From: Porphyridium purpureum
Lineage: Eukaryota
DNA length: 64,000 nt
NCBI GenBank assembly: GCA_008690995.1
Contig: VRMN01000001.1
Coordinates: 2,480,001-2,544,000 of the forward strand
Reading direction: 5' to 3'
Each line of letters starts with the position of its first letter. Position 1 is the stretch's first letter. Under the pieces are notes generated by a model, which ran no database searches, was not told the DNA's origin, and saw only the letters and a list, made by a program, of their open reading frames with translations. This document shows, piece after piece, positions 1,760 through 42,288 of the stretch. The position numbers were made by a program, and so were the translations under genes.

Positions 1760-3034
1760 ATGGTGGCGTCTGCGGTATTCATTCTCGACTCGCGGGGCAA
1801 AGCCCTGATTTCGCGGAACTTCCGCGGGGACGTGCCGATGAACTGCGTGGGCGAGTTTCGGCGCGTGGCGATTGACGTGGCAGACGCGCACAGCGTCAAG
1901 CCACTGAATCGGATCGAGGAAAAGGGTTACACGTTTGTGCACATTCGGCAGGAGGACGTCTACTTGCTTGCTGTGACGCGGCGCAATGCAAATGCGGCAA
2001 CGCTGATCGCGTTCCTTTACAAGCTGGTCGAGGTGATGACTGTCTACTTCAAGCGGGTAAACGAGGAGGCGGTCAAAGATAACTTTGTGATTGTGTACGA
2101 GTTGCTAGACGAAATGATGGATTTTGGGTATCCGCAAGTGTCAGAGCCGCGCGTGCTCAAGGAGTATATCACACAAGAATCGCACATCAAGGACTATGCA
2201 CGACCGCCGCCGGCCGTGACCAACGCAGTGAGCTGGCGCTCGGAAGGCATCAAACATGCGCGAAACGAAATCTTTCTGGACGTCATTGAGAAGCTCAATA
2301 TTTTGATTTCAGGGTCAGGAAATGTTCTACGCTCCGAGGTGCACGGCTCGATGCGGGTCAAGTCGTACCTGAGCGGGATGCCAACGTGCAAGCTTGGGCT
2401 CAACGACAAACTGCAGTTTGACTCGACAGGCATGCGCGCCTCGCACGCCGTCGAGCTGGAGGATATCAAATTTCACCAGTGCGTGCGACTGAACGAATTT
2501 GAACAGACCAAGAATATCCTTTTCATTCCACCGGACGGCGAGTTTGAGCTCATGAGCTACCGCCTGAACACGCAGGTGCGCCCTATCATCTGGGTTGACG
2601 CCGTGATCGAACAGCGTGTGAGCCGCGTCGACTACCTGGTTAAGGCGCGCACGCAAATCCCACCGGGAACGGTGGCGCGCGATGTCAAGATCATCGTGCC
2701 CGTACTGCCGGACGTGTCCAGTCCCGAATTCCGCAACAAGTCTGGCCGCGTCAAGTACAATGCGGCTAACGATACGCTGGAGTGGCACATCCGCAAATTC
2801 AAGGCAGACACCGAACTGGACATGCGCGGCTGGTTCTGCCTGCCGTCTGTCGGCGAGGATGCGCAGCGCGACGCCTCCACTCGTCGACCCATCCAGGTCC
2901 AATTCGAGGTACCATACTACGCTATCTCAGGCACCCAGGTGCGCTACCTCAAAATCACAAACATCGACTATCCCGCGTTGCCTTGGGTCCGCTATGTCAC
3001 GCAGGCGGGCGACTACACTATTCGGCTAGTATAG
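1760..3034 (+). CDS. AP1M1: AP-1 adaptor complex mu subunit
   Basis: SAVFILDSRGKALISRNFRGD, DNFVIVYELLDEMMDFGYPQ, FIPPDGEFELMSYRL, ALPWVRYVTQAGDY; first in-frame ATG at 1760. Confidence 0.96.
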   Translation: MVASAVFILDSRGKALISRNFRGDVPMNCVGEFRRVAIDVADAHSVKPLNRIEEKGYTFVHIRQEDVYLLAVTRRNANAATLIAFLYKLVEVMTVYFKRVNEEAVKDNFVIVYELLDEMMDFGYPQVSEPRVLKEYITQESHIKDYARPPPAVTNAVSWRSEGIKHARNEIFLDVIEKLNILISGSGNVLRSEVHGSMRVKSYLSGMPTCKLGLNDKLQFDSTGMRASHAVELEDIKFHQCVRLNEFEQTKNILFIPPDGEFELMSYRLNTQVRPIIWVDAVIEQRVSRVDYLVKARTQIPPGTVARDVKIIVPVLPDVSSPEFRNKSGRVKYNAANDTLEWHIRKFKADTELDMRGWFCLPSVGEDAQRDASTRRPIQVQFEVPYYAISGTQVRYLKITNIDYPALPWVRYVTQAGDYTIRLV

Positions 3035-4574
3035 TTGAGTCAAGAGCTTTACGCAAAGTGTACTTCAATACAAAAGTATGCGAGCTCATTTTCTCGTCGT
3101 CTTGGTCCACAAACAAACCTTTTGTCGTGTCGCACGAAAACAAAAGCTTCAAAACAGTGTTCAAGTGCCGCATGAATGCAAAGACTGGCAAAGCAAGCGA
3201 GCTAGACCGGAAACAATGGAAGCTCATTGTACGCGGGTATCTCAACCTGCGAGCAAAGCTGGAGAACCAGTTGTGGAGCGCGTCCGTGAGTACGTCAAGT
3301 TGGCACCCACAGCACACGAAGGCCTCGCGGACGAAAATTTCGAAGGGGGTGGTTTCACCACCGCAGTATTTGCGACAGCATCCTTGGGAATTCAGAGCTT
3401 AGCTCTCCACTTGAGTGCGCGAATCGTTGGCCCTAAATGCGTCAAGTTGGCTCTGAGATCGCTTCGTCTCGTCACTTCGTGCTCGCCATGATTTGGACAG
3501 ATCCGAGTGTGAATCCATCGCATCGATGTCCTTCCGCGCCTGCTCTGTCGGTGTGTGTAATCTCGGATTGCATGTCGAGCCTCGCATCAGAAGTGCAGGA
3601 GAAATGCTTTCTCTTTCCTCGGAGCTCACTGCTCAAGACGCGCTTCTTTTGTTTTATTCGCTCTGGAAAGCTGCCTCTTTTTATACAATTTCAGATCTGT
3701 CTTTCCGCATCCCTTCCCAGACGGATGCGTGTAACATCTGCCGCGTCAAAAACGCACGGTGCCAAGTGTAGCTCAGGCCTGCTACACTCGCAGTCAGGCG
3801 AGTCGACTTCAACAGGGAACGGGTCCGCGGCTTGAGCTCCAAACATGGCTCAATAGTCCTGACGGGCATACTGAAACATGAGACAATTTACTTCCAAAGT
3901 GTGCCGCATGCGAATGATGGATCATGCCGCAAGACGTCTCTGACGAAGCACAAAAGCCGCGAGCGACAGATCTACTTGAACCCTGCGTTGCGCTTTTCTG
4001 CCCCGAAGGAAGTGAAGGCAAGCAGTCAAAAAAGGCCTGCCCTGAAGCCGGCCATATTATCTCGCGTGTTCAGGCATCAAGGTGCATATTCAAGCACGAA
4101 ACTTAAGTCTCTTCTGGATCGGACCTTCCTCTCTTGCAGTCTTACTCGTAGATGCATCGGTTGCACAAATCGCGCCCTTGTTCGCAGTCGCACACAGTGC
4201 ATTGCTCGAAAACGGGCGGACACGTCTTTCTCAAGAAAATTCTAAAACTTTAAAGCCTCCTTCGTGCTTTGAATTTCAAGACATGTATCAATTGTAACTT
4301 TTCGTCTTCAGGTGTCGCCTTCAAGGCAATTACCCGTCTGCATGACCCAGACTTTACAAAGGGAGTGCCCTACTTGTACTTTCGCTCTGCAGCTTACGCA
4401 CCACTCCTTAGGCCGCAGTCCGGTGGGACGAGCTACATAGGTCATATGAAGGAAGAGAATGCAGCTTCAACACAACCTCGGCCTAATCATGCGCAAGATC
4501 AAAGCAACCGGTACAGCAAATGCATCTGCAGTTTTGCTGTTCTTACGGCCCAAAAGCCTTCTTTCGTTTCCGTG

Positions 4575-33133: not shown

Positions 33134-34822
33134 TCATGGAGAGATCTTGAAGAGACCAAGTACCAAATCGCCCAGGAACGTCTCACTGTTCTGACCAGAC
33201 CCAACGGTCAGAACAAAGACCGGCCGCTCAAGCACAATCGCTGGCCCTTCCAGGTTCACTTCTTCCACGCTGAACTCCAACGGACCTCCGGGCGACGGTT
33301 CAAGATAGTACAGGATCTTTGAGCAAAAGTCCGTGAAGACATACTTCCCCGTCAGGAAAGTCTCGTCGTCGCGCTCGTAGACTGAACCGCCCGAAATACT
33401 GCAGCCTCCGCCCTGATGCGTGTATTCGCCAATGGGCACCGTGAACGCCGACGAACCGCACTCTGGCACCTCAATGTCTCGCTGAACGCATCCGGCGATG
33501 CGATTAATGCATCTTGATCCTTCCAAGCGCGGCCACCCAAGGTTCACCAACGGGTCTGCGGGCATGCGCGAAACAGGAACGCGAGAAACCTCTTCGATGT
33601 CGTTTTGGCCGACATCAGCAATGTACAGAAACCCATTATGAATCGAAATACGCCACGGGTTGCGCACCCCAATCAAAAAGATTGATGGGTCATACCCATC
33701 TTCGTTATCGGCCAGTGGATTCGACGCGGGCACAAGGTATGGCTCTGAGTCGTCTGCGCCAACGTCCACATCTATACGCAGGATGCTGCCCAACGCGGAA
33801 GCTCGGTTTTGGCCATAACACGCAGGGTCATTCCCAGAACCGCCGTCTCCTAGTGCAACGAACAAAAGCCCGCTTGCGTCAAAACGCAAACCGCCGCCAT
33901 TATGGTTACTAAAGGGTTGCGCTGTCTCAAGGATGATCTTCAACGATCCTGGGTCTAAGACAAAGCTGCTACCCGGCATCAACGTGAAACGAGCCACCGT
34001 TGTGCGCCGAGCCCCGTCCAAAGGTGAAAAGTTGATGAACACGTAACCGTTCGTTTCAAAGTTTGGATGCACGGCGATGCCCAGCGCGCCAAGTTCTGCA
34101 TTCTGGCTCACAGAAAGTTGCAACGCGTCACCGATTGGTACTGACAAATCGTTAGCGTACGCACGAACTAGCCCCTGTCGGAAGAGTAAATATTTCATGT
34201 TGCTGCCTGCCTGCGTCAGATCCATAATTTGTGGTTCAGTCAGAACCTGCGCCAGTGTCGCTCGCGGGGAGGGCATCGGCGATGGGCTCGGTGATGGGCT
34301 CGGCGATGGGCTCGGCGATGGGCTTGGCGACGGGCTTGGCGATAGGCTCGGCGACGGGCTCGGCGACGGGCTCGGCGATGGGCTCGGCGATGGGCTCGGC
34401 GATGGGCTGGGCGATGGGCTTGGCGACGGGCTTGGCGATAGGCTTGGCGACGGGCTTGGCGATGTCGTTGTCCCACTCACACGTGCCAGCACCCGCCCGA
34501 ACCGAAGTGAGCAGTCCACTAAGCCTTGTTCGTCCTCCGTCCCAACAGGCACGAAGACGGCCGCTTGACCCTCCTCGCACACCTCTACGGCGGCGCTCAC
34601 GTCCTGATCACACGCGCATCGAAACGCGGAGCAGTCCTGGAAGTCGCATACCCCCGCGTTCCCACCGACTGGCTGGGCGCACCGCAGCCCAGTCTCCTCA
34701 AAGCATGCGCACAGTTCGGTCCCACACTCCGTCTGCGCGCATGCGAGACTGATAAAAGCGAACGCAACGACCACGAGTGGCACGAGCAACGCGCGCATCC
34801 CGCTCTTTGTCAACACCCTCAT
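33134..34822 (-). CDS. Secreted PQQ-dependent glucose/sorbosone dehydrogenase-like (HHIP-like) beta-propeller protein with Cys-rich N-domain and (SP)n linker
   Basis: Signal peptide; [54 protein letters not shown]. Confidence 0.88.
34277..34463. repeat. Coding tandem repeat (GGCGAYGGGCTY, 12-bp unit) encoding (Ser-Pro)n
   Basis: About 15 tandem copies seen directly; translates to SPSPSP on the minus strand. Confidence 0.95.
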
Positions 34823-35079
34823 GTTGTCTTTCCCGCGGGCGCGCGCGCGCGGCCGGCCACTTCCTTCCTTTGCTGTAATTACGCCGCCGCCTCCAAAACG
34901 AGAGCCGCGGCGTGAAACTGTTTCAAGCGATGCATCTGCGTCGTGAACTGGAACCAGAGCGACGAGCACCTCAACGATACGCGTTCCGTAAATTCAGAGC
35001 CGTGCAGGATATTTTTTTCGTTCAGTCACGCTGTACACAAACACACCGTGTTTATTGTTGAGTGTGCGTAGGGGGAGAC

Positions 35080-36663
35080 TTACGCATCAGCTGGGAGTGG
35101 CGTGAGGCGTTGTTTGCATGAGCTGAAAATGGTGGAGAAGAGCCGAACTTGGCCAATGGCGTCCATGACATCTGGCACAGGCACGCGGAGGGCGACGAAG
35201 CGCTTGCGGAGATCCTTGGACCCGGAGATGGCGAGCAGGTTGTGATGCTCCAGAGAGGTCTGGCACAGGTCGACAAATTGCGACATCGACACGTGCTGCA
35301 CGTTCAGAACGCGCGCTTGGCGCGACATCTCGTCGTATAGTGTGCCCAGAGTCAGACGGCGCTGGCCATGCTGCGCAAGACTGAACACAAGGCGCACGGC
35401 GCACGCCAGTGTGAGTTGTTGGTGCAGCGGTAGGCCCTGCATCACCGCAATGCTCGCTCCGCTTCCGCCTTTGGCTTGTAAAAGAGCACACACACGGCCG
35501 AGGTAGTATCCTGCATCGCGGCGCGGTGCGCTTTCACTCGCCTCGCATCCGGCGTCGTTTGCGACCTTGTGGCTCGGAAGGCTGTCCGCGCCGGCTCCAT
35601 GGTCGCAGTACAAGGCGCTGAGAAGCACTTGCCGAGCTATGCGTACATCTCCGGTCGTCGCCGCCACGCGCTTGCAGCACAGCTGAAGCGCAGGCTTGAT
35701 TGCATCTGCATCGGGATGCTCGGCAACGTGTGCCTGGAGAATGTGTGCGAGGGCGTCGGCCGTGTAGCTGGTAAACAGCACGGTTTCTGGCATGGATGCC
35801 GACGCACGCAGCCACGGTACCGCACGCGTGGGCATATCGAGAGCATTTGCGATGCCCACGATACCAATTCTACCTGCTGATCGTTTTGGCAGTTCAAAAA
35901 CCGAATACAGCAAGGATTGGTCCCGAGATAGCAGAAAATCCATCTCATCAAAAACCAGCAACACACGCCGCGCTCCTGAGCCTGATCGAGACACAGTGGC
36001 CACAAGCTGTTCGCAAGCCGTTCTAGAGTCCATGCCGAGAACGCAAGCATCCTTATTTCCAGACTTTCTTCTCAGTTGCTCGAGTACCGTGGGCAGGAGC
36101 GCATTGGCGTTGTCCCGGAACTCGGCACAGTTTACGGAGATAACATCGATACGGTCGCTCAGTGCAGAAACCACGCGACTGACTGTCAAAGATTTGCCAG
36201 TTCCAGGAAGGCCGCACACGTAAACATTTGCCACTGGACTGGCACGCACATTTTCCCCTTGCCGAGAGGGAGGAGCAGACGCGTCTGCGAAGGCGTGAAG
36301 TATTTCAGCCAATCTTTGGGACTCTTGCTCGCGCCCGAACACCACATGAGACACCTGGGCAGCCTGTTTGACTGTCGCGGCTCTCATCGGCTGCGCGTCG
36401 GTTCGCTCCTTTGCGCTGCCCTTTCCCAGCTCAATCGCAGGCACGCCAACGGAGATACGTGTCGCTTTGCTGATTTTGCCAAACTTGATTCGCGGTCCCG
36501 AGCGAGACGACTGCAGCTTCTGCGGCTCCTGTGACGTTTTCTCTCGCGCGAGTCGATGCGCGTCTGCTGCTGCCTGACTGGCAAGGCGCCCATTCTCACC
36601 AGCCGCAAGCCGGCGCGCGCCGAGATCGGCCGCCAGGCTGCCTTGCCGGGTCCTTGTGACCAT
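35080..36663 (-). CDS. CDC6: Cell division control protein 6
   Basis: VYVCGLPGTGKS, VNC, VFDEMDFL, GIANALD, YTADAL, TGDVR, LPLHQQL; winged-helix C-terminus. Confidence 0.9.
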   Translation of the reverse strand: MVTRTRQGSLAADLGARRLAAGENGRLASQAAADAHRLAREKTSQEPQKLQSSRSGPRIKFGKISKATRISVGVPAIELGKGSAKERTDAQPMRAATVKQAAQVSHVVFGREQESQRLAEILHAFADASAPPSRQGENVRASPVANVYVCGLPGTGKSLTVSRVVSALSDRIDVISVNCAEFRDNANALLPTVLEQLRRKSGNKDACVLGMDSRTACEQLVATVSRSGSGARRVLLVFDEMDFLLSRDQSLLYSVFELPKRSAGRIGIVGIANALDMPTRAVPWLRASASMPETVLFTSYTADALAHILQAHVAEHPDADAIKPALQLCCKRVAATTGDVRIARQVLLSALYCDHGAGADSLPSHKVANDAGCEASESAPRRDAGYYLGRVCALLQAKGGSGASIAVMQGLPLHQQLTLACAVRLVFSLAQHGQRRLTLGTLYDEMSRQARVLNVQHVSMSQFVDLCQTSLEHHNLLAISGSKDLRKRFVALRVPVPDVMDAIGQVRLFSTIFSSCKQRLTPLPADA

Positions 36664-36876
36664 GCCTATGTGTAGATCAATCCAGCACCTTCGGAAGGAC
36701 TTGCTTCAATTCTGAGACCAGTCACGTCGGTCGGCATCATCAAGCTGCGGCCTGGCGCTCCGCAGCACAACCCAAGTTTGCGCGCGAACGACGCACGGGG
36801 CACTGAGCACAGCTGAACCTTTTTCATAAGTAAACCACCGCATGGAATGAGAACATCCGCTTGAGCCAAGCCTTTT

Positions 36877-37178
36877 CGTGGGTTTTCTGTTAACGATCAA
36901 CGAAGAACCCTTTTACTATTCCCCTTCCCTTACCTTCTCTCTTTTCTTCTAGGCTTATCCGTCTGCCATCTCTGCGCGACCGCACCCACTATATAGACGC
37001 CCGCCGGGTCCTTGTTGATGCAATCTGACCACATCGAGTCACGTCACATCGGCATCCGGCGGGACGCTAGTCGAGTCACATCGCATTACACCCGCTGAAT
37101 CCCCGTCACGACGTCCCGGTACGTTCGCACTCGCCCTTCCGCACGCCCATCGACGAGTGGGACGGGCAACTTTCCACG
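36877..37178 (-). repeat. 3' LTR (302 bp)
   Basis: Direct repeat of 41976-42277; ends CGTGG...CCACG; contains CTATATAG (36989-36996). Confidence 0.97.
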
Positions 37179-40100
37179 CGCCCCGTGCACGTCTCGCTCT
37201 CGATCGTTGGAAGCGCCCTTCCTAAGGTTGGCAATAGCACGTGTAAATGCCACTCGTTCCATCGGCTTCGTGAAGATGTCTGCGCAATTCGATATTCCGG
37301 GGACAGACACGAGGTTCGAGTCTTCTCCATCAAAAGCGTCCGAGAGGGTGGCTACAGTGACGCCGTGTGTCTTCCCGAGACTTGCCATCTTGGCGGAGTA
37401 TCCTCGTCGAACGGCCTTCACCGCTGCTTCGCTGTCGCAACACACAGCGAGCGGTACGCGCGTTCCAACGAGCCCTCGGATTACAACTTCGGCGTTAGGA
37501 ATCGTAGTTCGCATGATCCTGCCAAGGGCGGTGAGTTCCGCCTCCGCGGTGGATAATACCGAGGCCCGTTGTGCTTTCGAAAACCAATCTACCAAGTAGT
37601 TCTCTTCTCCGTTTGAGAAGTATACGCAACCGCCGGAAGTTGACCGCCGCGTCGCGGGACAGCCTGCATGGTCGCTATCTGAAAAGGCGACTATTCGTAC
37701 CTGATCTCCCAGGCGCCCCGCGCTGCCGTATTCCAAGACACTATCCTGGCTCCCGTGCACGTACCGCACGATTCGGTCGAGAATCGCCGATGCTGCCTTG
37801 CTCCACTTGTCCACAAAGCGCGAGACATATGCGACCGAGTATGCTATTTCGGGCTTTACCGTGCGTGCGAGCCACATTAGGCGTCCGACGTGTTGCCGGC
37901 AAGTCGTACTGACTTCCGCTTCGTCGTAGAGCGCCGCCTCTGGAAATACCATGGGGGTTGCCGCATCGCGCGTGCCCCTCGTCCTCACAGTCGAGTCGCG
38001 CTCGTACTCATCTATAATGGTCTTTGCGTAGTCCGTACCATCAATCTTTACCCTTCCGTTCGTTCTGGAAATCCGCATGCCAAGGTGAAGGACCGGGCTC
38101 TCGCCGAGCCACTGCGGTTGCTCGTCGATCACGAATTCTTGATATAACTCACTCATGGCATTCCGTGCCTCGTCTTTCCGCCCCGCTAAGACCACGTCGT
38201 CAACGTACATTACCAAGACGAGTCCTGCCGCGTTCCCCTCGAGGCTTCTACGGATATACACTCCTGCTGTGACCTCCACCCATCCGAGACGCAACAAGCG
38301 ACTACGAGCTTCGCGCGCGAAGTCCGCTCCCGCTCTCGGTAATCCGTACATTGCCTTGCGGAGATGATGGGCGGTGCCCGTCTTCCCGCCTGCCTCGCTG
38401 GGAAGGATTACATACACCGGTCCCCCGCTGCACTCGGCCTGCAGGTAGGCGCTGGTGATGTCAACAAAGCCCACTTCTAATTCGTTCATCTGCGCCCACG
38501 CCAGCACGATCCTTAGCGCAGCTAAAGATGCCGGCGCCTCGTAGGGAACGGTAAGAGACACTGGGACCCCCGTCATGTCCGTAATGCGATCCCCCCCGGC
38601 CACGAGCCTTGCCTTGATCTTGCGCTCCTCAACAGGACGCTCCGTGTGCTTTTCGGCTACCACCATGTGCGCCCTTACAATAAGTCCCTCGGTAATGGAG
38701 TTCAGAGTGACCGGTTCCGGATCCCACACGCCGAAGCGCCGCATTTGCCCGAGCTCATTCTCAATGGCCTCAGCTGCCCTTCCATCCGTGGTGGCTTCTC
38801 GTCTGCTCATTACCCTGGTAACATTTATGGTCACGGAAGGAAAGCGCGCCGCTATTCGGGCCGAGCGACGGGCGTTCTTCTTTGTACGCCTGATTTCTTT
38901 GCCCTCCTTAGCCGCCCGCCGCGCCGCGACCTCCTGGCTTAGCTGCTTTTCCCGCTCGTCGATGGCCTTCAGGCGTTCCGTGATTGCTTCAACCCTCGCT
39001 TTGATTCCCGTCTCTTCCGACGCGACGTTGTCGCGCTGTGCGACTGCCAAATCCCCGTCCGGATCGTACGCGATCACCTTTTCCATTTCTGCGAGCGGTT
39101 CTGCGCCCGGCACGCGCATGGTGAAGTCTTTGAATACTCTGAAATCTCTTGTCCACGTCGTCGCTCCAGACCCTGTCTCGAGAACTTCGAGGGCGGCGGG
39201 GTGGTCCCGAGCCCCGACGACCACTCCCTCGCGCGTGGTAGGAGCGAACTTGTTGGCTACGTCGTCCACTTTATAGACCACCCGCGATCCGAATGGAGCC
39301 ATCAGCCATGGCTTGCCGCTCTCGACCCATCCCTGTCCGTATCTGCGCTCAAAGGGAGTTAGTCCGTCCCTACCCAGGTGCACCCGATTGTACCAGAACG
39401 CGAAGAATTTGGCTGCTCTGAAAAACCAGACGACGTGCAAACCCGATTGCCATAAGAGGCAACGAATGACGGCATTCAACGTGTGGTGCAGTCTTTCCAG
39501 TCGCGCGTGTCCGTTCGGTCTATGAGGGATGCAGAGGGTATGTTCAACGTTCCTCTCGCGCAGAACGCGCGCGAACGCGCCCCTAAACTCGCTGCCCGAA
39601 TCTGTGCGCATCCGTTTCGGCCAATCTCTCCCAGCTTGGCACTCGACAAGCGCCTCGCGGCAGGCCAGGGCAGTCTTATCGACGACTCCCGCGACTTCTA
39701 TCCACCCCGTGTGCTCGTCGACATGTGTCAGGATGTATCGATATCCTTCCCGCGAACGGACCTTGGCGCCGGCGTCGACCAGGTCCACCCCTATTTCTTC
39801 GTCAAAGCGTGCAGCGACCCCAGGTGCTCGCGCGTGCGCGTCGACATCAATTCGGTAAGACGGCCGCATTTTCAGCTTCGCCCTTGTACAAACCTCGCAC
39901 GACGTGCGAGCAGGCATGTGCAGGAGCGCGTGTCCGTCGGGCACATTTGAAACTGTGGTGCCAAGGGCGAGACGATCGACCCATGTCATTGCGCGTCGAA
40001 TACCTCGTATCGCATTTGGCGCTCCATCGTCGCTTGAACTTGACGCTATGTCGCCGGTTTGTGCCTCCCCCGGCGAATCAGGTTCTGGGATCAGGCTACA

Positions 40101-41201
40101 GTCTCCGGAAGGGTATGCGGTTTCCTTCAACGCACTGCCGCCATGCCGCGACCCGATTTTACTCCTGACTAGCGAGTCTTGCGCAGGGTCCGTGTTGCTC
40201 CTCGCCTTCGTTTTGCCCATCACTTGGTCCCTTCCTCGCGTCCGTACCTCCGTTTCGCGGCACTCAGCCGACTTCGCCAACGGGGTGCCTTTGCATGCTT
40301 GGTTCGAATGGACCTCGACATTCGCCCCCATGTTCGGCCTATCTGTTTCGCAATCTACGCGCTCCGGGCTCATATTCCCGTTCTCGTAACCGTTCGCTCC
40401 TGTCGAGCATGCGTTGGAGCTCCCCGCGCTCTCTTCATCGCTCAGCCCTGATGACTTTCCGACGTTCTTTTCATGCACGCGCCCCGCGCTTGTGTCTCGG
40501 TTCACGCATGGCCCGTCCACATGTACGCTCGAGCGCCCCGCGCTCCGTCCTTGATTTCGCGGCTGCGGATTGACAGAGCTTGCTTCCACGTGCCCTGCGC
40601 TCCCGTTCTGCTCTCTGCCCGGCCCAGCCGTTCGTCCGCTCGTGCGCCCTGCGCTCCCGTTCTGCTCTCTGCCCGGCCCAGCCGTTCCTCCGCTCGTGCG
40701 CCCTGCGCTCTCGTTCTGCTCTCTGCCCGGCCCAGCCGTTCCTCCGCTCGTGCGCCCTGCGCTCCCGTTCTGCTCCTTGTCCCTTTTCAAGTTCATATCT
40801 TCCCGCTTACGCATGAAAATGCTCCCGTCCTCGTAATCAATGACCATCCCAGTACGCGTCAGGAACTCCATACCGATGACGAGGTCGGTCATCAGTGCCG
40901 GACATACAATCGCACGGCAGCGACGTGACCCGATGCCGTTCAGCTCCAAATGACCGAGAAGGCTCCCGACAACATTAGTCTTGCGCCCGTCGGCAAGGAC
41001 GGCCTGAAGTCCCGGTGTCGCTTCGCAAAATGATAATAACCCTGAATGGCGCACCCATGCCTTATCCACAAAGACATGTGTGGCGCCACAGTCTACGATT
41101 GCCATCGCACGTTTCCCGCAGAAGCGAACGTGCAACGTCAGAAGTTCTGACGGCTCCCGCGCCGACACCTGCCCTAGTCTCGGCGCGGGGCGCCTTTTCC
41201 C
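37086..41201 (-). CDS. pol: Retrotransposon Pol (protease, integrase, RT, RNase H), entered by -1 frameshift from gag
   Basis: PR: IVDCGATH...IGMEFL. IN: HxxxH..CxxC, GVDLVD, RTDSGSEF, LER. RT: KARLVAGG, DITSAYLQ, LRKAMYGL, YVDD. RH: FSDSDHAG..RRSTSG, STAEAE, CDS, ADIFTK. Confidence 0.95.
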   Translation of the reverse strand, partial: GKRRPAPRLGQVSAREPSELLTLHVRFCGKRAMAIVDCGATHVFVDKAWVRHSGLLSFCEATPGLQAVLADGRKTNVVGSLLGHLELNGIGSRRCRAIVCPALMTDLVIGMEFLTRTGMVIDYEDGSIFMRKREDMNLKRDKEQNGSAGRTSGGTAGPGREQNESAGRTSGGTAGPGREQNGSAGRTSGRTAGPGREQNGSAGHVEASSVNPQPRNQGRSAGRSSVHVDGPCVNRDTSAGRVHEKNVGKSSGLSDEESAGSSNACSTGANGYENGNMSPERVDCETDRPNMGANVEVHSNQACKGTPLAKSAECRETEVRTRGRDQVMGKTKARSNTDPAQDSLVRSKIGSRHGGSALKETAYPSGDCSLIPEPDSPGEAQTGDIASSSSDDGAPNAIRGIRRAMTWVDRLALGTTVSNVPDGHALLHMPARTSCEVCTRAKLKMRPSYRIDVDAHARAPGVAARFDEEIGVDLVDAGAKVRSREGYRYILTHVDEHTGWIEVAGVVDKTALACREALVECQAGRDWPKRMRTDSGSEFRGAFARVLRERNVEHTLCIPHRPNGHARLERLHHTLNAVIRCLLWQSGLHVVWFFRAAKFFAFWYNRVHLGRDGLTPFERRYGQGWVESGKPWLMAPFGSRVVYKVDDVANKFAPTTREGVVVGARDHPAALEVLETGSGATTWTRDFRVFKDFTMRVPGAEPLAEMEKVIAYDPDGDLAVAQRDNVASEETGIKARVEAITERLKAIDEREKQLSQEVAARRAAKEGKEIRRTKKNARRSARIAARFPSVTINVTRVMSRREATTDGRAAEAIENELGQMRRFGVWDPEPVTLNSITEGLIVRAHMVVAEKHTERPVEERKIKARLVAGGDRITDMTGVPVSLTVPYEAPASLAALRIVLAWAQMNELEVGFVDITSAYLQAECSGGPVYVILPSEAGGKTGTAHHLRKAMYGLPRAGADFAREARSRLLRLGWVEVTAGVYIRRSLEGNAAGLVLVMYVDDVVLAGRKDEARNAMSELYQEFVIDEQPQWLGESPVLHLGMRISRTNGRVKIDGTDYAKTIIDEYERDSTVRTRGTRDAATPMVFPEAALYDEAEVSTTCRQHVGRLMWLARTVKPEIAYSVAYVSRFVDKWSKAASAILDRIVRYVHGSQDSVLEYGSAGRLGDQVRIVAFSDSDHAGCPATRRSTSGGCVYFSNGEENYLVDWFSKAQRASVLSTAEAELTALGRIMRTTIPNAEVVIRGLVGTRVPLAVCCDSEAAVKAVRRGYSAKMASLGKTHGVTVATLSDAFDGEDSNLVSVPGISNCADIFTKPMERVAFTRAIANLRKGASNDRERDVHGARGKLPVPLVDGRAEGRVRTYRDVVTGIQRV
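40592..40775. repeat. 54-bp tandem repeat (~3.4 copies) in the pol PR-IN spacer
   Basis: Encodes EQNGSAGRTSGGTAGPGR repeats. Confidence 0.93.
41156..41201 (-). promoter_or_regulatory. Programmed -1 ribosomal frameshift signal
   Basis: G GGA AAA heptamer (41201-41195) in gag frame, 5-nt spacer, then 10-bp stem CCCGCGCCGA/TCGGCGCGGG (41189-41156). Confidence 0.85.
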
Positions 41202-41914
41202 GGCTGCGCCTGCGCTCGCGCGCGGTGCGGCTTGGGGCAGTCTCGCGCAAAGTGCCCGCGTTCCTCGCAGTTGTAACAGGTTACCTCCATAGCCTGCGCC
41301 CCGATTTCCATTGGTGCCGAGCTCTCTCCATACGGCACGTCGAAAGCGCGCGTCGGGCCTGAGCGATGGTGGATCCCAAGACCCTGGGATGATGGCGAAC
41401 CGCGACGCGCCGCCACGAATGCGTCCTCCGCGCAAAGGGCAACTCGGCAGGCCTCATCGAGGCTACTTGGATTCTCCTTCATAACTTCGAACGCTATGGC
41501 GGGCTTAAGTCCACGCGTGAACTTGTCCAACGCCTCCGCGGCACCCACGTCCTCACACGCTAGGACCAGGTCCCTGAACTCGGCCGCGTACACCGCTACG
41601 CCCCTCGTCTGGCGCCATCCATGCAGCGCATCTCGCGCGCGACGCTTGTAGTCCGCCGGCAAGAACTGTTCCATAAACACCGTTCGAAACCCGGCCCAAT
41701 TCTCTGGACGGACCGGCAGGCCACGCAACCACTGCAATGCAGTATCCGTCAAGTAGCTCATGGCTACGTTGACTCCTTCGCGCTCAGAGCTGGCGAACGG
41801 CAGAACCTTCGTCTCCACTTCGAACAACCAGTTCATCACCACTCGCTGGTTCCGCTGCCCCGCGAACTGGCTGAGCCGCGCCGGCCTCACAACTGGCCCC
41901 GTCTCCTCGTCCAT
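41174..41914 (-). CDS. gag: Retrotransposon Gag (Ty3/gypsy-type capsid + CCHC zinc knuckle)
   Basis: YLTDTALQW, WAGFRTVFMEQF, WRQTRGVAVYAAEFRDL, FTRGLK, PMEIG, CYNCEERGHFARDC. Confidence 0.95.
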   Translation of the reverse strand: MDEETGPVVRPARLSQFAGQRNQRVVMNWLFEVETKVLPFASSEREGVNVAMSYLTDTALQWLRGLPVRPENWAGFRTVFMEQFLPADYKRRARDALHGWRQTRGVAVYAAEFRDLVLACEDVGAAEALDKFTRGLKPAIAFEVMKENPSSLDEACRVALCAEDAFVAARRGSPSSQGLGIHHRSGPTRAFDVPYGESSAPMEIGAQAMEVTCYNCEERGHFARDCPKPHRARAQAQPGKGAPRRD

Positions 41915-41954
41915 CCCGACAGGCCCCGCACCAGAGACTACCGCTCCTCACCCG

Positions 41955-41975
41955 CCGAACCGGGCGATGATACCA
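41955..41975 (-). other. Primer-binding site (probably initiator tRNA-Met)
   Basis: Minus strand TGGTATCATCGCCCGGTTCGG directly abutting the 5' LTR; TGGTATCA is the usual tRNAiMet PBS start. Confidence 0.8.
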
Positions 41976-42277
41976 CGTGGGTTTTCTGTTAACGATCAAC
42001 GAAGAACCCTTTTACTATTCCCCTTCCCTTACCTTCTCTCTTTTCTTCTAGGCTTATCCGTCTGCCATCTCTGCGCGACCGCACCCACTATATAGACGCC
42101 CGCCGGGTCCTTGTTGATGCAATCTGACCACATCGAGTCACGTCACATCGGCATCCGGCGGGACGCTAGTCGAGTCACATCGCATTACACCCGCTGAATC
42201 CCCGTCACGACGTCCCGGTACGTTCGCACTCGCCCTTCCGCACGCCCATCGACGAGTGGGACGGGCAACTTTCCACG
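41976..42277 (-). repeat. 5' LTR (302 bp)
   Basis: Identical by eye to 36877-37178; immediately followed on the minus strand by the PBS. Confidence 0.97.
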
Positions 42278-42280
42278 CTT

Positions 42281-42288
42281 TTTGGCGC
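42281..42288 (+). promoter_or_regulatory. Predicted E2F site TTTGGCGC at the retrotransposon insertion point
   Basis: Matches TTTSSCGC; overlaps the right TSD; ~210 bp upstream of the CDC6 ATG in the reconstructed empty allele. Confidence 0.5.

Follow-up and report, generated by a model that had tools for sequence, protein, structure and literature searches.

A recently active retrotransposon of the red alga Porphyridium purpureum joins a Ty3/Gypsy-type Gag and protease to Ty1/Copia-type enzymes

Long terminal repeat (LTR) retrotransposons of the Ty1/Copia and Ty3/Gypsy types (Pseudoviridae and Metaviridae) are regarded as distinct families, each with co-evolving capsid, protease and enzymes. 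Here we describe an element of the red alga Porphyridium purpureum (GenBank assembly GCA_008690995.1, contig VRMN01000001.1) that combines parts of both. It lies in a stretch of 64,000 nucleotides (positions 2,480,001 to 2,544,000 of the forward strand; hereafter the window, in whose coordinates all positions are given), where an LTR retrotransposon of 5,401 bp at 36877-42277 on the minus strand encodes a Gypsy-type Gag and protease followed by a Copia-type integrase, reverse transcriptase (RT) and RNase H. We conclude that this inter-superfamily mosaic is genuine, that it is intact and has been active recently, and that it is present in multiple copies.

A red-algal precedent is PyRE10G of Porphyra yezoensis, which is by its title a Copia element with a gypsy-like integrase (listed in PMC5445492) and is related to GalEa (PMC3587641). 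PyRE10G and GalEa resemble the window element as red-algal Copia mosaics with the same generic Copia RT motifs, and an initial sequence-only reading of this DNA had pointed to red-algal Copia elements with gypsy-like parts. PyRE10G, judged by its title, is a different mosaic: the integrase of the window element is Copia-type and its Gypsy-type parts are Gag and protease. GalEa elements are marked by TRPDI (or CQPEA), a protease with DTG(C/A) or DSGC, the primer-binding site (PBS) TGGTAGCAGAGC (or a fungal hairpin site) and TGT...CA ends (PMC5445492), whereas the window element has TVKPEI, DCGA, the PBS TGGTATCATCGCC and the ends CGTG...CACG; it thus departs from GalEa in motif, protease, PBS and ends alike. 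Gmr1 likewise has a Gypsy Gag-protease followed directly by the integrase and then RT-RNase H (Llorens 2009, PMC2774666), but is classed there as Ty3/Gypsy, whereas the integrase, RT and RNase H of the window element are Copia by profile and tree. The CoDi-A elements of diatoms are Copia elements with a Gypsy-typical trait, the chromodomain (Llorens 2009, PMC2774666); membership in this group was rejected, as no Chromo family match is found after the integrase in the region and the rows that we label diatom-like by motif, not by reference sequence, form a separate RT branch. By its RT, the window element files under Ty1/Copia, with which it shares the order protease-integrase-RT-RNase H, an RVT_2 RT, Copia RNase H motifs, the integrase and a 5-bp target duplication; it differs in its Gypsy-type capsid, ILG-class protease, predicted -1 frameshift and CG...CG ends, has neither the Gag nor the protease of Copia, and is not a GalEa element. 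Its nearest Copia relatives are the protist and metagenome elements P0002, L004 and P0003 and the Symbiodinium record P0006.

The domain split proposed from sequence alone proved real: Pfam, profile scores, trees and, for Gag, the predicted fold place Gag and protease with Ty3/Gypsy, and integrase and RT-RNase H with Ty1/Copia. The gag frame (41174..41914, minus strand, 246 aa) encodes a Ty3/Gypsy-type capsid and one CCHC knuckle, and the motifs first quoted for it (ALQW, FTRGLK, PMEIG and CCHC) are all present. It matches the Pfam families Retrotrans_gag (E 7.7e-14, above the cut-off) and zf-CCHC, as well as Ty3_capsid at E 3.5e-6 (27 bits, slightly below the cut-off of 29.1), and the families given by the Atlas are the same. 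Copia-type Gags belong to the Retrotran_gag_2/UBN2 families; the Pfam scan lists no match to these, to Pol_BBD or to RVT_1 up to E 1. A structural model of Gag, built from 86 aligned sequences (pLDDT 86.5), ranks the capsids of dArc, PNMA2, Ty3 and PEG10 (E 8e-5 to 9e-3) over the Drosophila copia capsid 8vvw (E 0.12), and its best match in BFVD is ORF1 of a fungal metavirus. Sequence searches of the PDB support only the CCHC knuckle and the integrase core.

The pol reading frame (37086..41453, minus strand, 1,455 codons stop to stop) overlaps gag in the -1 frame and terminates within the 3′ LTR. Its aspartic protease (40806..41147, minus strand) is also Gypsy-type, with a catalytic DCG and a C-terminal VIG; the motifs expected of it are present at 41102 (AIVDCGATHVFV) and 40877 (IGMEFL). 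It matches Asp_protease_2 (E 2.1e-8) and gag-asp_proteas (E 4.9e-8), and scores 58.6 bits with the profile of Gypsy-associated proteases (n=10), against 2.0 bits with that of its own RT's Copia group (n=14) and 10.7 bits with that of other Copia elements (n=15). The ILG protease motif has been contrasted with LLS, the latter being present in all but very few Copia elements (Llorens 2009, PMC2774666); the C-terminus of the window protease, LVIGMEFL, is of the ILG class and lacks the LLS motif. In the protease tree it groups with eight Gypsy rows at 99/95, and a grouping with its RT's own Copia group, the outcome that the sequence-only reading had set against itself, is rejected by the approximately unbiased (AU) test (p 0.011). 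In the tree of Gag and protease together, the element stands next to P0135, a Gypsy protein of the same species, at 89/77 inside a 99/98 branch, with five other Gypsy-RT rows outside; the Gypsy-RT rows come together without the hybrids in 1% of 200 bootstrap trees.

Gag and protease together were used in a full HMMER search of 1.84 billion proteins, and we examined the best 150 of its 2,246 hits. Thirteen of these 150 exceed 500 aa; 12 were scanned, and in six of them an RT lies downstream of Gag, always of the RVT_1 type, one of the six (P0166) carrying an additional RVT_2 piece upstream of its Gag. Of the full-length hits among the 150, the best is P0135 (KAA8495185.1; 35% over 290 aa, E 1.3e-29), a canonical Gypsy of P. 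purpureum with the order Gag-protease-RT-RNase H-integrase. Its Gag is 36-38% and its protease 28% identical to those of the window element, and its Gag, too, terminates beyond a CCHC knuckle left out of the fused gene models, which suggests separate gag and pol frames there too. The two differ in that P0135 has an RVT_1 RT, a Gypsy RNase H and a downstream H2C2 integrase, none of which the Pfam scan lists for the window element. A word-index search with the protease region retained one of 137 candidates, the query itself, and one with Gag against longer proteins none of 2,602, where the full HMMER search did find relatives; pattern scans of viral contigs and prokaryote genomes gave no locus.

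The switch from Gypsy to Copia falls within a low-complexity linker of about 280 residues between protease and integrase (39954..40790, minus strand), which includes a 54-bp tandem repeat (40592-40782) and in which we looked for, and did not find, the remnant of a second, Copia protease. Beyond it, the pol order protease-integrase-RT-RNase H is as first described, all in one frame: an integrase with an HHCC finger and D-D(34)-E (39084..39941, minus strand), an RT (38001..38651, minus strand; KARLVAGG at 38615, YVDD at 38207) and an RNase H (37254..37691, minus strand; SDSDHAG at 37682, ADIFTK at 37283). Pfam gives rve at E 5.1e-9 and RVT_2 at E 4e-15, the RT matching RVT_2 only. The integrase scores 147 bits with the profile of its own Copia group, 79.5 bits with other Copia elements and 17.3 bits with Gypsy, and in its tree the Gypsy rows separate at 100; it is 31-32% identical to the nearest rows and has the D(34)E spacing in common with its two nearest relatives, P0002 and L004. 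For RT-RNase H, identity to the nearest relatives is about 30%. For the RT tree, 154 rows were reduced to 121 by dereplication at 70% and then by hand to the 47, all Copia, of the careful tree, in which the labels plant_animal, diatom_like and GalEa_like stand for source names and motifs, not reference elements. The element falls within an 18-row Copia group at 100/97, made up of metagenome and protist elements, including the Symbiodinium record, and the same group appears in a 121-row FastTree. Members of this group have a W-x-x-D-[ST]-G-type protease near the integrase and often a CCCH-finger Gag. Across 24 stretches from pol relatives, Retrotrans_gag and Ty3_capsid are never found and gag-asp_proteas once, below threshold, and the Gag profile exceeds 31 bits in none of 2,584 other frames and proteins from pol-relative loci and hits.

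Some of these relatives have features of their own. An AAA_28 NTPase follows the RNase H of P0002 (residues 1213-1375, E 4.6e-13), and a zf-CW finger lies between integrase and RT in P0007 (residues 660-680, E 7.8e-6). At four metagenome loci (L006:3049-3051, L015:2869-2871, L018:1603-1605 and L027:2577-2579), a single stop parts a long, in-frame CCCH-finger Gag from pol, an arrangement that suggests read-through.

The window element is not alone in its architecture. P0163 (528 aa) has a Gypsy-type Gag, a CCHC knuckle and a protease followed directly by an integrase core, with no recognisable integrase zinc finger seen between protease and core. Its core is 36% identical to that of the window element, which is its best match among 236 proteins, and the two integrases are sisters at 99/95. 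Since P0163 has the same order of Gag, protease and integrase, the window element belongs to a small lineage. Their Gag-protease portions are only 26-28% alike: that of P0163 is sister to the P. purpureum protein P0146 (KAA8494420.1), and that of the window element to P0134. A single origin of the Gag-protease of both hybrids is neither established nor rejected (AU p 0.076). P0163, P0146 and P0134 probably represent further hybrid families.

The pol product matches named P. purpureum proteins at 99-100%. Protease and integrase are found in one chain in six proteins of this cluster, of which five are named, corresponding to eight accessions on at least four scaffolds; the adjacent proteins P0133 and P0123 resemble a copy broken in the linker. 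The bounds first proposed for the element, 36877 and 42277, are its exact ends: the 5′ LTR (41976..42277, minus strand) and the 3′ LTR (36877..37178, minus strand) are both 302 bp long and 100% identical, and the target-site duplication CTTTT abuts the element on the left (36872..36876, plus strand) and on the right (42278..42282, plus strand). The insertion site is empty in two of three contig runs, where a joint 36871->42278 omits 5,406 bases, that is, the element and one pentamer; runs X17-X21, with a share of 0.37 or less, did not enter the analysis. RNA reads are present in all 30 bins of 39300-41900; first mates map mainly to the plus strand, which in the usual stranded libraries means sense RNA, against a weak control (a host gene with mixed strands at low depth). 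A hybrid long-read assembly of P. purpureum is reported to have an LTR content of 8% and a recent LTR expansion, the available text leaving the families unnamed (PMC6811547).

Beyond what the sequence-only reading had remarked, gag and pol occupy different frames with a likely -1 frameshift signal between them, and the element ends in CG...CG. The usual anatomy of -1 frameshifting is a slippery heptamer with a hairpin downstream. Here, a predicted heptamer G GGA AAA in the gag frame (41195..41201, minus strand), 3′ of the CCHC knuckle, is followed by a predicted stimulatory hairpin (41150..41194, minus strand; -33.7 kcal/mol, z -5.0), equalled in stability by none of 500 shuffles and the strongest of 1,584 windows of 45 nt in the internal region. 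Together these likely form the -1 frameshift signal between gag and pol. Public gene models (P0121, P0126, P0130, P0132) instead fuse the two frames by means of an intron, at the cost of the CCHC knuckle; this is probably a mis-annotation. The frameshift of Ty1 is +1, and -1 is typical of Gypsy elements and retroviruses. Among Copia elements more widely, frameshifting (Ty1), read-through, splicing or degradation of Pol are described (PMC5580714).

As to the ends, CGTG...CACG extends two bases beyond an inner TG...CA on each side, so that the element does not end in TG...CA. The target duplication abuts the CG at both ends, in agreement with the empty site, and among the 18 loose ends listed of 71, 17 have their start at the CG or immediately outside it, and the inner TG/CA is the start of none. 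Among 50 plant genomes, the first T was reported as invariable even in non-canonical LTR ends (bioRxiv 10.1101/137141). Most simply, the CG ends would arise because the two bases beyond CA escape trimming before insertion. A comparison with the pol relatives yielded, among loci above 4 kb, only L004 with a plausible 75-bp repeat, which lacks a target duplication. The flanks of the other insertions shown appear by eye to be T-rich before and A-rich after the element. The 5′ LTR has a TATATA box at LTR position 184, and the PBS (41958..41975, minus strand), directly 3′ of this LTR, starts with TGGTATCA and is presumably of the methionine-tRNA type; no tRNA gene that could pair with it is present in the window. 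At nt 41962, the PBS of the window copy is one base longer than most copies in the three contig runs, and this extra base may reflect a tRNA-templated correction. Before the 3′ LTR lies a short and weak purine tract, GGGGCG (37179..37184, minus strand).

The element sits between a CDC6-like gene, whose start codon is 214 bp off, and a CstF-64-like gene 745 bp off, both oriented away from it. The polymorphic insertion thus lies 214 bp upstream of the CDC6-like start codon (36663-36877), and an effect on the expression of these divergent genes is possible. Elsewhere in the window, a gene at 33134-34993 (minus strand) encodes a glucose/sorbosone dehydrogenase domain (E 1.3e-19) preceded by a cysteine-rich N-terminus and an SP-repeat linker.

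We think it rather likely that the 5′ module of a Gypsy element was joined to the pol of a deep Copia lineage by an old recombination. The best tree, the bootstrap and the same-species match all speak for such a capture without proving it; several points weigh against it. A position of the protease as the sister of all the Gypsy proteases sampled withstands the AU test (p 0.46), as does one of the Gag-protease of both hybrids apart from all six Gypsy-RT rows (p 0.20). A recent scar is lacking: Gag-protease is 35-38% identical to that of the same-species Gypsy, and GC3 has no step at the Gypsy/Copia junction. The Gypsy reference set was chosen by likeness to the window's own Gag-protease, the pattern used to enrich the 18-row RT group had been built with the RT of the window element itself, and the trees were made without labelled GyDB, REXdb or Repbase references. 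The RT of the window element has a long branch, and the basal fork of the group from which it springs is not resolved. Several of the 24 pol-relative stretches contain no Gag, as they begin only at the protease. Contig depth drops from RT-RNase H to Gag in two of the three runs (2,409-3,221, then 1,532, then 603; and 43.5, then 25), a step across 37200-41950 seen in runs X1 and X6 and absent from X4, for which 5′-truncated copies, partial cDNA or library bias are candidate causes. Finally, frameshifting, priming and the lack of end trimming are read from the nucleotide sequence only.

The alternative that survives best involves no swap at all: Gag and protease would have come down from the ancestor shared by Copia and Gypsy, preserved in this relic lineage and altered in the other lineages of Copia. 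It draws on the same AU results, which allow the hybrids' Gag-protease to lie outside the sampled Gypsy elements, and on the deep branching of the window RT within its group. We nevertheless hold it to be unlikely: the best tree sets Gag-protease beside the same-species Gypsy, the converse arrangement appearing in only that 1% of bootstrap trees, and a same-species Gypsy as the best full-length match among the hits examined is unexpected for a relic. Furthermore, the proteases of the sampled members of the RT's own group are of the type found in other Copia elements, so that retention would require this Copia type to have arisen more than once. The sequence-only reading had left the choice between a chimera and a deep lineage of modular origin: a small lineage is borne out by P0163 and a chimeric start is the most likely, with ancestral retention still at AU p 0.20.

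Membership in a described Copia clade with gypsy-like parts (GalEa/PyRE10G/CoPorcru, or CoDi-A) has some prior appeal, given that the GalEa-like expressed sequence tags CoPorcru1/2 come from Porphyridium cruentum and PyRE10G from Porphyra (PMC3587641) and that KARLVA, YVDD and ADxxTK are common to GalEa and the window element. It is very improbable, as the marks of GalEa (TRPDI, DTGC/DSGC, its PBS and TG...CA ends) are absent, the row that is GalEa-like by motifs (P0069) and the diatom-like rows lie elsewhere in the RT tree, and the integrase is Copia-type with no chromodomain family after it. An assembly join, or a one-off Gypsy fragment nested in a Copia element, is scarcely credible: no single contig record spans protease to integrase, because short-read contigs break at the 54-bp tandem repeat, and the depth over Gag-protease is lower in two runs, but the element has one identical LTR pair, one target duplication and an empty site, P. 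purpureum records match it at 99-100%, a single open frame encodes both protease and integrase in at least eight named gene models on at least four scaffolds, contigs over 39300-41900 show no joints and a loose end in only one of 14 (19 adapter-like bases), RNA reads cover this interval without branching, and the divergent, independent P0163 has the same order.

Under the recombination that we prefer, RNA from the 5′ LTR would be translated into Gag, and a minority of ribosomes would slip by -1 at G GGA AAA before the hairpin to make Gag-Pol. Inside a Ty3/Arc-like shell, the Gypsy-type protease would process its own Gag as well as the Copia-type enzymes. Reverse transcription would start from a tRNA bound at the PBS, and the cDNA would be inserted by the Copia-type integrase with the two bases beyond CA untrimmed, giving rise to the CG ends. 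A broader version is offered more tentatively, as a possibility short of likely: a living red-algal hybrid lineage in which one deep Copia enzyme module took Gag-protease from co-resident Gypsies, possibly more than once, together with the Gypsy -1 frameshift, the CG ends being a Gypsy-style two-base overhang that the Copia integrase leaves untrimmed. Bearing on repeated pick-up, the two hybrids have sister integrases, yet their Gag-protease portions are as dissimilar as noted above, and that of the window element is nearer to the true Gypsy P0135.

In the literature searched, neither a Copia pol behind a Gypsy Gag-protease nor the family of the window element was found described, most subscription journals, Repbase and GyDB lying outside this coverage, so that a prior entry is possible. 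REXdb infers that Copia elements have recombined among themselves, and excluded elements whose origin appeared to be chimeric (PMC6317226); a set of 300 genomes is described as including two red algae and no Porphyridium (PMC8282616); and common pipelines demand TG...CA ends (bioRxiv 10.1101/137141). Hybrids of this kind are thus easily lost, through chimera removal as in REXdb, pipelines tied to TG...CA and gene models that fuse gag and pol via a false intron. The element indicates that Copia enzymes can work with the shell and protease of a Gypsy element, so that structural and enzymatic modules can be exchanged across the deepest divide among LTR retrotransposons. Since the alga is in culture and the element is intact, expressed and polymorphic in its insertion, this compatibility of a Gypsy shell with Copia enzymes is directly testable.

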